A DNA stretch of 7,032 nucleotides from a virus (taxonomy: Duplodnaviria > Heunggongvirae > Uroviricota > Caudoviricetes): the IMG/VR virus record IMGVR_UViG_648276650_000006; one strand, given 5' to 3'. Made by a program: the position numbers and the translations under genes. Below the pieces are notes generated by a model. It was not told the origin of the DNA. It worked only from the letters and a program-made list of their open reading frames with translations, and did no database searches. Below are positions 3,419 through 7,032 of this stretch, in pieces (position 1 is the stretch's first letter; every line of letters starts with the position of its first letter).

Positions 3419-4282
3419 TCAGAAGAAGAAATTCCAGACTGCACGGGCGACTGATACCACGATGTCGCGCACAGACTGGATGACTGACCGAACCTGGGCC
3501 GGTATCAGGGGCATGGAACTTACTGTATCCAGTACCGAGCCGACCGTTTCACCAAAATCGTCACGGGCTTTTTTATTAACGGCATCGGTACGAAGTGGCG
3601 CACTGAGTTGTACTGCCACCTGACTACTGGCCTCCCGTGGCAAGCAACGAATCATCCGCTCAGCCATCATCCGCAGCCCCCACTGCAAACGTATCGACAC
3701 CGCACAGACAGGGTTTACAGGTTGGAACAACTCATGCAGCAGACAGATTTTGAGGCTGATATTTCGTTTCTGCTCTGTAGACAGCTTTTCACCACCGCAG
3801 GTGGGTTCAACCTTGTCAGACTGGCTGATAACAAACAACACCTTATGCCGGTATGCTTCACCAATCACCTGCCGGTAAAAATGTTCATCTACGGCCAGCG
3901 CCCGATCATCACCCTTAATCAACCACAGAACCAGATCCAGCTGGGGGAGCTGTTTACGGTACAGCGTGGCATACTCTGTATCCCGGCGCTCAGACTCCCC
4001 GACGCCGGGTAAATCCACCAGCGTCATAAAGCGCTTCCCCACTTGCAGGCGAAAGCGTAAGGGTTCGCGTGTGCAGGCGGTCACATCGCTGACCGGTGAA
4101 ATCTCACCGGTAAACAGGGCATTACATAAGCTGCTCTTGCCCGAGCCAGTTTTACCCATGATGCCAATCACCGGCTCATAGTCAGTAAGCTGATTTATCT
4201 GCTGCAGAATACGCTCTGATGCCCAGTGCGGCAGGTTAGAAAGCGAATGCTGCAGTGACTGTAAACCTTCAAATTGATTCAT
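3419..4282 (-). CDS. yfjP: P-loop GTPase of the YfjP/YkfA/YeeP family (50S ribosome-binding GTPase-like domain)
   Basis: 287-aa ORF. Walker A/G1 GIMGKTGSGKSS, G3-like DLPG. AGGAG Shine-Dalgarno 5 nt upstream of the ATG at 4280..4282. Length matches what I recall for YfjP/YkfA (287 aa). The yfjP versus ykfA assignment rests on the downstream DUF932 and WYL-regulator order and is not certain. Confidence 0.7.
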   Translation of the reverse strand: MNQFEGLQSLQHSLSNLPHWASERILQQINQLTDYEPVIGIMGKTGSGKSSLCNALFTGEISPVSDVTACTREPLRFRLQVGKRFMTLVDLPGVGESERRDTEYATLYRKQLPQLDLVLWLIKGDDRALAVDEHFYRQVIGEAYRHKVLFVISQSDKVEPTCGGEKLSTEQKRNISLKICLLHELFQPVNPVCAVSIRLQWGLRMMAERMIRCLPREASSQVAVQLSAPLRTDAVNKKARDDFGETVGSVLDTVSSMPLIPAQVRSVIQSVRDIVVSVARAVWNFFF

Positions 4283-4300: not shown

Positions 4301-4335
4301 AAAACAAAAAAGGCAAGACCGTGAGGTTCTGCCTT
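4301..4335 (-). terminator. Terminator-like hairpin plus U-tract in the leader immediately upstream of the GTPase gene
   Basis: Minus-strand RNA: about 11-bp stem (plus 4310..4320 pairing with 4325..4335; one mismatch, one wobble), loop GUGA, followed 3' by UUUUUUGUUUUC (plus A-run 4301..4311), then the AGGAG SD and ATG. It faces transcripts entering from the AT-rich cargo side. Confidence 0.5.
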
Positions 4336-4384
4336 TAATGAGGTATGTTCAGGGGAATGATATATATCTGAATATTTTTAGAAT

Positions 4385-4430
4385 GCTGATAGGCCGTTCT
4401 GTGCCAGGAGCGGACGTTGCGAACGCTTTG
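4385..4430. repeat. Left copy of a degenerate ~46-bp direct repeat (core GTGCCAGGAGCGGAC)
   Basis: Manual alignment to 5363..5408 at a constant offset of 978 bp: core 15-mer 14/15 identical, flanks 9/16 and 7/15, about 30/46 overall. Located in the divergent intergenic region upstream of the Toprim gene. Confidence 0.45.
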
Positions 4431-4570
4431 AGACTGATGATCATTTCAGATGTTAATTAATTAAAGGCATGGTAATGTTTAGGCTCTGTAGGGTAAATTT
4501 CCCGCAGTATTTTCGGTTATCAATAGCTTGTGGAGTTAACTCTCAGAGGGGGCAGTTAGTGGGAACAACA

Positions 4571-5269
4571 ATGGAGGACATCCAATACGAAGAAATGTTA
4601 AATGAGCTTCTATTCGAAAAAGTAATGAAGAATGAAGCAAAAAAACAATGCATTTACATTTTTGTCGAAGGTGAGTCTGAAGAACTTGCTTTTCAACCCT
4701 TACTTGAAGACTGTGGTATAGATTTCGATAAGCTTGGTATTGTAATTGCAAATTACAATGGGATTGGTAACTTAAAACACGCCATAAGACTTCTACATAA
4801 AACATTGAGCCATGATCGACCAATAATAGTAACGTATGATGATGATCATGAAGGAAAAATAATAAAGAAAATAAATAGCCCATTGATCACATACTTTAAA
4901 ATACCATTTAGCCCTGTAGTTTCTTATAATGATGGAACTTTAGGCGGAACATTTGAAGAAAGCTTTCCTAAAGATTGCTTTATAGAAGCTTGCTTTCAGC
5001 AAAATGTTATAGCTAGTTCTTTTTTATCAAAACGTAATGACTTTGAAAAAAAATTCAATCCAACTCAGCCATGGTTAGCTCAATTAGCACAATTCATTTC
5101 TTCCAATGGTGGGACTCCTAATTCTATAAATAAAACAAAATTAGCTGAAAACATGATGCTTTCAGTATCTCAGATACCTGAAACCTATAATGAGTTAGCA
5201 AAGTTAATCATTGATATTAGAAACAAGACCCCAATAAAACACCCTGAAAATGTAGATTTGAATTTGTAA
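4571..5269 (+). CDS. Standalone Toprim-domain protein, a putative nuclease with an OLD/AriB-like catalytic core
   Basis: 232 aa from the ATG at 4571, where G+C content drops; the track ORF begins at ATG 4469, which is an alternative start. Toprim signature seen directly: hydrophobic strand IYIFVEGESEE with E33, and IIVTYDDDHEGK with D90-x-D92-x-x-G95. No Walker A motif in this ORF or in any adjacent ORF. Markedly AT-rich with A/T-ending codons, unlike the backbone. Confidence 0.6.
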   Translation: MEDIQYEEMLNELLFEKVMKNEAKKQCIYIFVEGESEELAFQPLLEDCGIDFDKLGIVIANYNGIGNLKHAIRLLHKTLSHDRPIIVTYDDDHEGKIIKKINSPLITYFKIPFSPVVSYNDGTLGGTFEESFPKDCFIEACFQQNVIASSFLSKRNDFEKKFNPTQPWLAQLAQFISSNGGTPNSINKTKLAENMMLSVSQIPETYNELAKLIIDIRNKTPIKHPENVDLNL

Positions 5270-5362
5270 ATAATACTATTTATTTTCACGCACTGATTTT
5301 TCCGCGTTTGGTAGGTATTATCGCAACGTCCTATTTTCACTCATAGCTGCCCTACCTACCTT

Positions 5363-5408
5363 CTTGATGGGCAGCTTCGTGCCAGAAGCGGACATAGCAT
5401 CCGCTAAA
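5363..5408. repeat. Right copy of the degenerate ~46-bp direct repeat (core GTGCCAGAAGCGGAC)
   Basis: See the left copy at 4385..4430. This copy lies about 95 nt downstream of the Toprim gene stop and contains a small hairpin, AGCGGA / loop CATAGCA / TCCGCT. Confidence 0.45.
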
Positions 5409-5790
5409 GTAAAAGCAGGCGTTAATACCTGTGAGGGGTAAAAACGCGCATCGATTAACAAGAGTAACTGTAGTGATTCACAATCATGAAAAAATTTTCT
5501 TTATACAGAATAAGAAGCCATTTAATATGGTTAGAAGATTTAATTTAAGAGTAAATTATATATAATATATGGCTAATTAACTTATGTTAATGGAACTATA
5601 AAATGAAAACTTCAATGAGTTAATCGGTGGATTAAATAAATATATCGTTCCTGGACTTCAGAGAGATAAGACTAATGATTTTCAAAAATAGATTTCTGAA
5701 CAAGCAGTGAAAGTGTGGGGTGTTAACTAATACATCAAGATATACTTTAAACGGATAATATATAAAGTCACAATCAAAGGTAGATGAAAA

Positions 5791-6813
5791 ATGTTAGACT
5801 TAGAATATGCTGTAACTGAGCCTTTTTTAAATTACCATTTATTTCATGAAGGATTAAATACGAAGGTTAAGGTTTTAACCTCATCACTTAATCATGTGAT
5901 TGAATATTTATTGACGCCAGGCAATGAAAATAAAATGAATGAGCTCATTAAGAAAACTGATAAATCTTGGCAATTCCCGCCGAATTTTTCACTTCCAAGC
6001 CCTCCAGTTGATGAATCAAATTTAAAAAATAAAACATCATCAAGAAGACTAGATAAGGAAGAGGATAATAATGAATTAGATTATCAATTAAAGAAAAAGG
6101 AATTAGCGCAAGAGATGTTGTATTGGTATGTAAGTGAAATGGCTATATTTGGCACTTTTTCTGCTTTGGATGATTGTATTGTCGATATTGATTCTTGGTT
6201 TTCAAGTTGGGCAATGTTTAATAACACTCAAGATAAAAAATCGGAATCAACCAGTAGTAACAAAATTGAAAGGTTATATGATTCACACGAATGGAACATG
6301 AAGAACATAAAGACATTCCTTCCGATTTATGAGTATTTTTCAGCAGTTAGAAATTCAATAGCTCATAGGCAATCCAAAGCATCTCATAAGTTATCAGAGA
6401 TATCAAAATCCCAAGAATTAAAAGAGTCAGTAGAGAGAAACTTCCCAAAAGGTAAACCATTAAGTGAATTTGAATATAATGAAGATATATTCATCTCTCC
6501 AAAAACGTCGTTGCTTTGTTCTCACATAATAAGATTAATTTTCGAAGATATCAATAAATACATCATAAAAAAAATGGGTATTGAAGGTATCATCTACATG
6601 TCATGCAAACTTGCATTTGAACCATCATCTTATAATGAAAGCAAAGTTGTTAACTTAGCTAGAAATAGATTGAACGAAATCGTTAGTGGTCGATATCATG
6701 TAATTATAAAAGGTGAGGATGAAGCCGTTAAGGTTGCTGAGTCACTTGGCATTTGGCGTGATTGCGCTAAATTTCATGCGAACAATATGAGGAAATTAGA
6801 TCCAAAATTCTAA
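5791..6813 (+). CDS. Hypothetical 340-aa protein with an R-x4-H (RNSIAH) HEPN-like motif; candidate Abi-like RNase
   Basis: Long uninterrupted AT-rich ORF. AAGG lies about 10 nt upstream of the ATG, a weak SD. No P-loop. The single motif R187-N-S-I-A-H192 (nt 6349..6366) has the RNxxAH form common in HEPN RNases, within a predicted helical stretch (FLPIYEYFSAVRNSIAHRQ). The CDS call is stronger than the functional call, which rests on one short motif. Confidence 0.6.
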   Translation: MLDLEYAVTEPFLNYHLFHEGLNTKVKVLTSSLNHVIEYLLTPGNENKMNELIKKTDKSWQFPPNFSLPSPPVDESNLKNKTSSRRLDKEEDNNELDYQLKKKELAQEMLYWYVSEMAIFGTFSALDDCIVDIDSWFSSWAMFNNTQDKKSESTSSNKIERLYDSHEWNMKNIKTFLPIYEYFSAVRNSIAHRQSKASHKLSEISKSQELKESVERNFPKGKPLSEFEYNEDIFISPKTSLLCSHIIRLIFEDINKYIIKKMGIEGIIYMSCKLAFEPSSYNESKVVNLARNRLNEIVSGRYHVIIKGEDEAVKVAESLGIWRDCAKFHANNMRKLDPKF

Positions 6814-6899
6814 CCTTATCGCGAAATAATTTATGTGCCAGAGTTTCCCTGGCGCTATTGCGATAATGTTTTATTGGCCTATGCCTCGCAGATTAACAC

Positions 6900-6928
6900 A
6901 GGGCGATGTTAAAAGTCGCCCTTTATAG
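6900..6928 (+). terminator. Candidate intrinsic terminator downstream of the HEPN-like gene
   Basis: Plus strand: stem (A)GGGCGA / 9-nt loop / TCGCCC(T), followed by TTTATAG; about 90 nt after the stop at 6813. Short stem and weak U-tract. Confidence 0.35.
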
Positions 6929-7032
6929 TCAGAACAGATTCCTACTTCCGCTCCTCGCTCATAGCAGACCTTCAGATCCGGGAGGGTGTCCGCTTAGTGC
7001 TGTGAGTTCAACTGATGGACGCAACACACTTA

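Follow-up and report, generated by a model that had tools for sequence, protein, structure and literature searches.

Worn palindromic junction units delimit cargo cassettes at the backbone end of a CP4-type island of Escherichia coli

The window analysed here is the whole 7,032-nt stretch of IMG/VR record IMGVR_UViG_648276650_000006, and it represents the end of the backbone of a CP4-type Escherichia coli island. The backbone genes, all on the minus strand, code for a lipoprotein-like protein, a GYF-domain protein, a DeoR-like regulator, a DUF932 protein and a yfjP-like GTPase, and their GC content of 51-64% differs from the 30-37% of the AT-rich cargo that follows. A first-pass annotation made from the letters of the window had drawn attention to a degenerate direct repeat of about 46 bp bracketing a TOPRIM gene. 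Analysis of this repeat revealed three co-oriented, decayed junction units, which form the borders of a TOPRIM and a HEPN-like cassette beside the yfjP-like gene of the CP4-like island. What can be said most safely is that the two 46-bp copies form the right-hand portions of worn bipartite palindromic junction units, each made of a palindrome A and a palindrome B, which bound independently mobile cargo cassettes. The features of the window are listed below; scores are those of covariance model R1.

3419..4282, minus strand: yfjP-like GTPase gene, the last backbone gene before the variable region (Pfam MMR_HSR1, E 6.5e-15)
4358..4421, plus strand: junction unit 1, of which only the B half is recognisable (29.7 bits, E 3e-7, plus strand better)
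4401..5382, plus strand: cassette 1, with a stand-alone OLD-like TOPRIM gene (Pfam PF20469, E 2.3e-9)
5324..5399, plus strand: junction unit 2, a decayed A together with B (38.7 bits, E 1e-9; also a regular-expression match to the unit; repeats D8 and D1)
5383..7000, plus strand: cassette 2, with a 340-aa open reading frame (ORF) at 5791-6813 carrying an RNSIAH (Rx4H, HEPN-like) motif, and a terminator-like hairpin at about 6901-6925
6835..6841, plus strand: GTGCCAG motif outside the family, within a local hairpin GCCAG-N7-CTGGC (2.6 bits, E 4.8)
6942..7000, plus strand: junction unit 3 (model match 6942-7026, 46.4 bits, E 1e-11; about 500 E. coli records homologous)
7001..7032, plus strand: terminal inverted repeat of an IS30-family (ISCfr4-like) insertion sequence (IS), inserted in the centre of the spacer of the third B palindrome, the cut lying between 7000 and 7001

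Architecture of the junction units

The unit measures about 76 bp and consists of palindrome A, a linker of 14-20 nt and palindrome B, its consensus being nnAnGTCCGCTCCTCGCTCAnAGCGGAC...GTCCGCTCTGTGCCAGAAGCGGACnTTGnn. Each palindrome is 24 bp long and is formed by inverted arms of 8-9 bp (GTCCGCTY and RAGCGGAC) around a conserved, asymmetric spacer of 6-8 bp. In enteric bacteria A reads GTCCGCTYC-TCGCTCAT-AGCGGAC, while B reads GTCCGCTYN-GTGCCAG-RAGCGGAC, with the intact form GTCCGCTT-N-GTGCCAG-AAGCGGAC; the arms of the two are thus alike and their spacers different, and A is usually found some 14-20 nt upstream of B. Comparison of the consensus sequences showed 20-21 identities in 24 positions between A and the reverse complement of B, so the unit as a whole is an inverted doublet. 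From unit to unit the linkers vary, and conservation is limited to the palindromes. The B palindromes are flanked by AT, AC or RTTG, and most copies continue with RTTG or ATNGC.

The covariance model R1 was built from 24 units at loci outside the window. Across these units complementarity of the arm pairs is 87-92%; the innermost B pair shows covariation, with UA in 10 sequences and CG in 7, and the arm variants GTCTGC and GCAGAC also occur. Palindromy is under selection, to judge from the covarying pair and these variants. Scanning of the window with R1 gave three matches, on the plus strand only, at 6942-7026, 5324-5399 and 4358-4421.

The two 46-bp copies, 4385-4430 and 5363-5408, align without gaps at exactly 30 of 46 positions, and their near-perfect core, GTGCCAGGAGCGGAC in the one and GTGCCAGAAGCGGAC in the other, agrees at 14 of 15, in accordance with what had been described. 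Both are intergenic, the first lying between the GTPase gene and the TOPRIM ORF and the second between the TOPRIM and 340-aa ORFs. Each consists of the linker, the B palindrome and the next 15 nt of flank, of unit 1 and unit 2 respectively, and the 15-bp core corresponds to the spacer and the right (3') arm of B. Unit 1 covers most of 4385-4430, and its B remnant, GGCCGTTCT-GTGCCAG-GAGCGGAC, occupies 4392-4415 with the spacer at 4401-4407. The second copy is the right part of unit 2, in which the A remnant (5328-5351) is followed by the linker (5352-5369) and by B in the form GGCAGCTTC-GTGCCAG-AAGCGGAC (5370-5393). A third occurrence of GTGCCAG had been pointed out at 6835-6841; the heptamer is there but does not belong to the family, and the third true copy is 6942-7000, oriented as units 1 and 2. 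It contains A as TTCCGCTCC-TCGCTCAT-AGCAGAC (6946-6969), the linker (6970-6987) and only the left half of B, GTCCGCTTAGTGC (6988-7000). Since A is an inverted variant of B, unit 3 was first seen as an inverted repeat, I2, in which B of unit 1 (4386-4417) stands against A of unit 3 (6944-6975).

Whether the similarity of the two copies exceeds a shuffled background depends on where it is measured. Comparison of the window with itself gave a best 46-mer match of 31/46, while 40 dinucleotide shuffles gave 27-32, with 31 or more in 2 of the 40; three pairs of 15-mers shared at least 14 positions, against 0-8 in the shuffles. Such marginal values could be taken for a chance resemblance of two GC-richer stretches of intergenic DNA. 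That explanation is scarcely credible and has already been refuted, as the model built from other loci finds the units at E-values of 3e-7 to 1e-11 and thousands of homologous units exist elsewhere.

The first-pass annotation had also ascribed to both copies a stem-loop around AGCGGA....CCGCT with signs of covariation. A stem of 6 bp does form in copy 2 (-8.4 kcal/mol, z -1.98), while in copy 1 only 4 bp are left and folding is no better than that of shuffles (z 0.08). Covariation around this motif was unsupported, and the conserved palindrome lies on its other side, in the B palindrome defined above. The alternative wording of decayed REP-like elements (REP, repetitive extragenic palindromic) proved apt, since intact copies are 24-bp palindromes abundant in other bacteria and the window copies are mostly unpaired. 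Overall, the earlier observation is confirmed in part and its interpretation supported in part.

The window closes with 32 bases that match exactly the right inverted repeat of an ISCfr4-family copy annotated at another locus (L215), where a complete ISCfr4 sits in a B site with a 2-bp (GC) duplication, that is, GTGC, the IS, then GCCAG-AAGCGGAC. The same IS end adjoins A- or B-type palindromes at at least eight further loci, alphaproteobacterial ones included. IS30 prefers palindromic hot spots and forms reactive junctions between its inverted repeats. A target hot spot of that family is a palindrome of about 24 bp, entered at its centre with a duplication of 2-3 bp, and the insertions found here agree with it. 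It could then be argued that elements of this kind build the arrays themselves, targeting palindrome centres, fusing or co-transposing cargo and leaving reconstituted palindromes after their loss; the cut in the B spacer of unit 3, the L215 copy and the further loci would fit. Most junction units, however, carry neither an IS nor an IS scar, precise loss of both IS copies restoring the palindrome would be rare, and the IS elements seem to have used a favoured target secondarily, much as others insert into REPs. We therefore consider an origin of the arrays by IS30-type transposition very unlikely.

A contiguous match (H224) joining the left flank of the window to its right end was at first a candidate for an empty site; it was rejected, being the same IS in another B site. 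In the K-12 island (L216, about 16900-16930) the intergenic region between yfjP and rnlB has no B site; the sequence GAACTCACAGCACC found there, adjoining the rnlAB toxin-antitoxin cargo, is the reverse complement of GGTGC joined to TGTGAGTTC, and it looks like a relic of an IS30-type end joined to a B half-site. A separate observation concerns about 85 nt preceding B of unit 1 (4320-4404), which recur elsewhere in CP4-type islands, at 9001-9083 of L216 (K-12) and 6001-6085 of L215, and occur at a median of two places per genome with any match. In CP4-57 of K-12 this entry sequence lies between a DUF905 gene and yfjW and is followed by GTGCCAAAAGCGGAA; its repetition suggests that CP4-type islands may have a second cargo slot. 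At the opposite end of the window, a run of about 30 G (1-34, gcgggggcgggggg...) is most likely an end artefact of sequencing or assembly; homology to other E. coli genomes begins at position 29.

Cassettes, breakpoints and distribution

The TOPRIM protein of cassette 1 is devoid of an ATPase domain and is widespread in Gammaproteobacteria. Its ORF probably starts at 4571 (4571-5269, 232 aa, MEDIQYEE...) and not at the listed 4469 (266 aa), because the homologues are 232-237 aa long. The 340-aa protein of cassette 2 matched no Pfam or NCBIfam family and gave weak PADLOC matches to CARF_HEPN/Csx1; it is a candidate for a single-gene defence or abortive-infection module. In other genomes its gene travels alone, and McrBC, Gabija, GIY-YIG and SymE genes are among its neighbours.

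Both cassettes recur in unrelated contexts at 81-99% DNA identity, and homology breaks inside B or A. The TOPRIM module is found in a Rac-like prophage (L210) at 98.7% (window 4398-5399, L210 3521-4522) and in strain PAR at 81%, where it adjoins a diverged GTPase gene (window 4401-5329). The 340-aa module is found in a Klebsiella chromosomal island beside McrBC at 96.6% (window 5374-6977, L128 5584-7186), beside Gabija genes at 86% (window 5381-6972, L132) and in E. coli near norVW at 97.5% (window 5379-7000, L211). The left end of module homology was always at the B spacer and the right end always at the next B or at A. Homology to these five unrelated loci thus begins and ends inside units, which strongly supports the suggestion, made in the first-pass annotation, that the repeats mark cassette boundaries.

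The backbone gives the same picture from the other side. Two E. coli chromosomes (L001 and L002), in which the yfjP-like gene is annotated as a GTPase family protein, are 99.9-100% identical to the window up to 4415-4418, the end of the core, and then carry other cargo; homology to other E. coli genomes stops at 4414-4420. In L002 the same left flank is followed by GTGCCAGAAGCGGAC and by a different cargo, a CDF transporter; records of Kluyvera and Enterobacter have this cargo after B as well, with another left flank. In the Rac-like prophages of four strains the slot between one B and one A is filled by a different cargo each time, in one case by no more than 230 bp of non-coding DNA; homology of the left backbone ends at B, the variation starting right after GTGCCA, and that of the right backbone resumes from inside the A spacer. 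In a record of the P2-EC48 Z region (L127) there is a unit at each of the four junctions (37-121, 1398-1472, 2709-2755 and 3773-3837). Cargo boundaries in other strains therefore coincide with the repeat. A 5-kb TonB-receptor/ABC-transporter iron-uptake operon in E. coli (L139/L140) is also bounded by units, so cargo is not limited to defence genes.

Of 5426 complete E. coli genomes, 2909 contained A-B units, with 1-7 per genome, all of them in unannotated intergenic DNA. Short BLAST queries consisting of the core and a few flanking bases found exact or near-exact copies in about 400 E. coli genomes, always in unannotated DNA of prophages and islands. Among the matches listed for species-representative genomes, the exact B 24-mer was found in more than 120 contigs with unrelated flanks; the hosts include Pantoea, Erwinia, Enterobacter, Klebsiella and Citrobacter as well as soil Alphaproteobacteria (Pseudolabrys, Xanthobacteraceae), with several exact copies per soil metagenome-assembled genome, and single contigs of other phyla. 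Outside E. coli, ordinary chromosomal genes flank the units, which in most cases lie downstream of convergent genes. A gene-specific regulatory motif was considered and rejected, as the genes beside 120 exact B sites formed no single family on clustering; they code for LysR regulators, ABC binding proteins, methyl-accepting chemotaxis proteins and others.

The additional units within loci are co-oriented in 26 cases and opposed in 2 (binomial p 3e-6), while the cargo genes point either way. This polarity bears on a possible role in RNA, which the first-pass annotation had also raised; each cargo gene would then bring its own copy of a terminator, a 3'-end stabiliser or a small RNA. Intact units do fold strongly as single strands (z -2.6 and -3.7), units in other genomes tend to lie downstream of genes, and a T-run follows some copies, as in L002. 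Against this, the orientation of the units follows the array and not the gene, and unit 1 is located upstream of both its neighbours, in a divergent intergenic region. Most copies are without a T-run; a terminator scan found none at the three window units, and Rfam 15 gave no match at the units of the window and of seven loci with intact units. Moreover, a terminator-like hairpin belonging to the 340-aa cassette itself precedes the unit, and the window copies fold no better than shuffles. An RNA role is accordingly improbable, and we give it little weight.

A candidate recombinase and competing explanations

In three of four sampled E. coli contexts a 200-aa protein annotated as site-specific integrase is encoded less than 5 kb from a unit. 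It consists only of a Phage_integrase catalytic domain (PF00589, E 5e-19) and has no Y1_Tnp match; its best named relatives are of the Xer type, all far under the family cut-offs, and it scores 15.9 bits with the integron-integrase model integrase_gron of NCBIfam, for which the cut-off is 265. The R, K, H, R, H and Y positions are invariant across 11 homologues. The gene is present in CFT073 and Nissle 1917. The K-12 gene intG was considered as a relative and rejected as unrelated.

Analysis of the flanks of the E. coli recombinase gene revealed CTTCCGCGCC-TCGCTCAT, the left arm and spacer of A, 45 nt upstream of the ATG, and, 27 nt past the stop codon, a hairpin and then GTGCCAG-AWGCGGAC-GTTG, the spacer and right arm of B, where homology between the loci ends. 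The same half-sites were looked for around about 73 environmental (metagenomic) homologues of about 60% identity, one mismatch being allowed in GTCCGCT. This motif occurred within 160 nt upstream of the gene in 37 of 74 cases, against 10 of 75 inside the gene and 4 of 62 far away, and AGCGGAC within 100 nt downstream in 30 of 73, against 5 of 62 far away; the enrichment is orientation-specific, with Fisher p from 1e-5 to 2e-8. Flanking inverted repeats matching at 13 or more of 16 positions were found at 21 of the 73 loci and at 2 of 73 after shuffling. The spacer types beside the gene match the local types of palindrome, GTGCCA in enterics and GGCCA or GACCC at GC-rich loci, and at one alphaproteobacterial locus (L056) the distance between a homologue and an exact B site is 20 nt.

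Two further observations concern this gene. It is always paired with a divergent gene for a 366-aa protein (L137 1222-2322 and L140 840-1940, minus strand), which has no family match, an RNRVVH (HEPN-like) motif and a cysteine-rich C-terminus; this gene may work together with the recombinase or may be part of the cargo. A group of IMG/VR records (L174-L191) contains copies of about 68% identity broken by stop codons, around which canonical A and B sites are missing; they may be products of decay, and a search for other palindromes near them and near distant homologues gave nothing consistent.

Both palindromes have the anatomy of a tyrosine-recombinase core site, GTCCGCTY-(N)GTGCCA(G)-RAGCGGAC for B and GTCCGCTYC-TCGCTCAT-AGCGGAC for A; core sites of the lox/FRT/dif type consist of two inverted arms of 7-13 bp with an asymmetric spacer of 6-8 bp in between. 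Given the inverted arms, the asymmetric spacer, the two spacer types, the polarity of the arrays, the breakpoints at the level of the spacer and the bracketed recombinase gene, we prefer site-specific recombination at the units by the 200-aa tyrosine recombinase as the mechanism of cargo exchange, and give it about an even chance of being correct. Cargo would be moved by recombination inside the spacers, by two routes: exchange between co-oriented B sites would excise or insert a cassette with its tail of A, linker and left half of B, and paired crossovers at B and A would replace the cargo lying between them. The recombinase, as the most likely enzyme, would act in trans, and the 76-bp units would be recombinase-less miniature derivatives of an element in which the recombinase gene lies between the left half-site of A and the right half-site of B. 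Binding and cutting of the sites by this enzyme, the position of strand exchange and the usability of the worn copies of the window are what we infer from comparison of sequences.

Several findings weigh against recombination by this enzyme. The gene was found in 885 of the 5426 E. coli genomes and units in 2909, and of 120 loci selected by an exact B site just one encodes the recombinase within 8 kb. Full palindromes showed no density peak around 80 metagenomic homologues, only half-sites being enriched, at 40-50% of the loci. The E. coli recombinase loci may share ancestry, so that their consistent layout is not independent evidence. Counts of pairs do not separate two independent palindromes from an attC-like fold of the left arm of A with the right arm of B (89.7% against 92.6% paired). 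The window copies have lost most of their arm complementarity and may be inert scars. With the palindromes themselves conserved, the ends of BLAST alignments are uncertain by several bases.

The strongest competitor is homologous exchange, in which the units would be passive REP-like palindromes, structural or insulating in function or relics of miniature elements, and RecA, lambda Red or RecET would swap the cargo via 24 bp of homology, with no dedicated site-specific enzyme. A conserved palindrome of 24 bp, being about the minimum for homologous or Red/RecET-type recombination, would be expected to give the same breakpoints. As only the palindromes are conserved between units and the linkers vary, homology-driven crossovers would be possible nowhere else, and the observed breakpoints would be reproduced. 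Most unit-bearing genomes are without the small recombinase, many of the host elements are lambdoid prophages encoding recombinases of their own, and in other bacteria the units sit, like REPs, mostly downstream of convergent genes. On the other hand, strong conservation of both arms and of the asymmetric spacers in different bacterial classes speaks for a protein that recognises them; the half-sites precisely bracket the recombinase gene over a large evolutionary distance; in the Rac-like prophages variation begins right after GTGCCA in the B spacer; and 24 bp is at the lower limit for efficient homologous exchange. Homologous exchange between passive palindromes is, on balance, possible and in our opinion somewhat unlikely.

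Going beyond site-specific recombination at the units as such, we put forward more tentatively, and at less than even confidence, that the units may belong to a cassette system distinct from integrons, in which the 200-aa recombinase, acting in trans, would insert, excise, invert or exchange whole cassettes, those with anti-phage genes included, among Enterobacterales phages, satellite-type islands and chromosomal islands, and in which the same pair of enzyme and site would spread repeats in soil Alphaproteobacteria resembling REPINs (paired inverted REPs). If true, this could supply a missing mechanism for the turnover of defence hotspots and possibly a missing enzyme for a class of orphan REPs. 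Among the major reservoirs of anti-phage systems are the hotspots of P2-like phages, lambdoid prophages and CP4-type islands, and a specific element at their cargo joints is now defined. A concrete candidate enzyme in well-studied strains makes the question of cargo exchange directly testable, and the units could be used as computational markers that delimit single cargo modules and help to find single-gene defence candidates, such as both cassettes of the window.

Comparison with known systems

Neither Rfam nor the searchable literature gave us a description of the unit system. The element was not found by searching full texts for the core, the arms and the translated peptides, nor by using boundary sequences, cassettes, tyrosine recombinases and IS30 targets as keywords. 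The exchange of cargo at hotspots was treated by Rousset et al. 2022 (PMC9122126), who left the mechanism open, suggested recombination of cos ends in addition to homologous recombination and called for experiments; the terms 'hairpin' and 'palindrom' have no occurrence in that text. The units resemble the P2 Z-region hotspots in that they occur at every P2-EC48 cargo junction and that these hotspots carry anti-phage systems.

The Acinetobacter pdif modules are comparable in that cargo such as toxin-antitoxin or resistance genes is bounded by 28-bp core sites of alternating orientation and a module is shared by different replicons. A dif-type site has an 11-bp XerC arm, a 6-bp spacer and an 11-bp XerD arm, approximately GGTGCGCATAA-N6-TTATGTTAAAT. 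The arms of the present palindromes, GTCCGCTT and AAGCGGAC, are unrelated to the XerC and XerD arms by sequence comparison with this consensus; the units are moreover pairs of A, linker and B, and their hosts are phages and islands of Enterobacterales.

With REPINs and their REP-associated tyrosine transposases (RAYTs), the units share GC-rich, extragenic inverted doublets with a spacer, present in multiple copies and at high copy number in some genomes. They also share the flanking of the presumed mobilising enzyme's gene by the repeats and the targeting of the palindromes by IS elements. They differ by the absence of a 5' GTAG tag, and the flanked gene codes for a tyrosine recombinase of the Phage_integrase type and not for an IS200/IS605 HUH-Y1 protein. 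In contrast to REPs, the E. coli units are of low copy number and confined to the accessory genome, at cargo junctions, and the same unit sequence occurs in different bacterial classes, while a REP is as a rule limited to one genus. The CGTC-tagged REPs are described by Di Nocera et al. 2013 (PMC3733652) as palindromic repeats most frequent in Alphaproteobacteria and present in deep phyla too, mostly as inverted dimers downstream of genes and with no dedicated transposase. As there described, their stems of 8-9 bp begin with A/T pairs and their loops measure 4-5 nt, unlike the stems GTCCGCTT and the spacers of 6-8 nt seen here; at this level of description there was no obvious fit by stem and loop sizes, and these families were set aside.

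Integron attC sites, too, resemble the units. They are about 60-140 bp long and consist of two simple sites with inverted arms and a spacer of 7-8 bp, the crossovers taking place in the 3' simple site; the tyrosine recombinase has a hybrid site by its gene, as does the present one 27 nt past its stop codon; a fold with an outer stem (left arm of A with right arm of B), unpaired spacers, an inner stem and a loop is possible; and co-oriented sites lie between cassettes whose boundaries fall inside the site, as do the breakpoints at B or A in at least eight comparisons. The unit consensus, however, is without the core sites RYYYAAC (R'') and GTTRRRY (R'), and the 200-aa recombinase, being limited to the catalytic domain, is not IntI and scores far below the threshold of the IntI model, as given above. 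The cassettes are long, have their own promoters and point in either direction, and the arrays occur in phages, satellite-type islands and chromosomal islands, the recombinase gene usually not being nearby. The junction units thus resemble attC cassettes, REPIN/RAYT pairs and pdif modules in their working, and are set apart from each of these by its defining sequence and enzyme.

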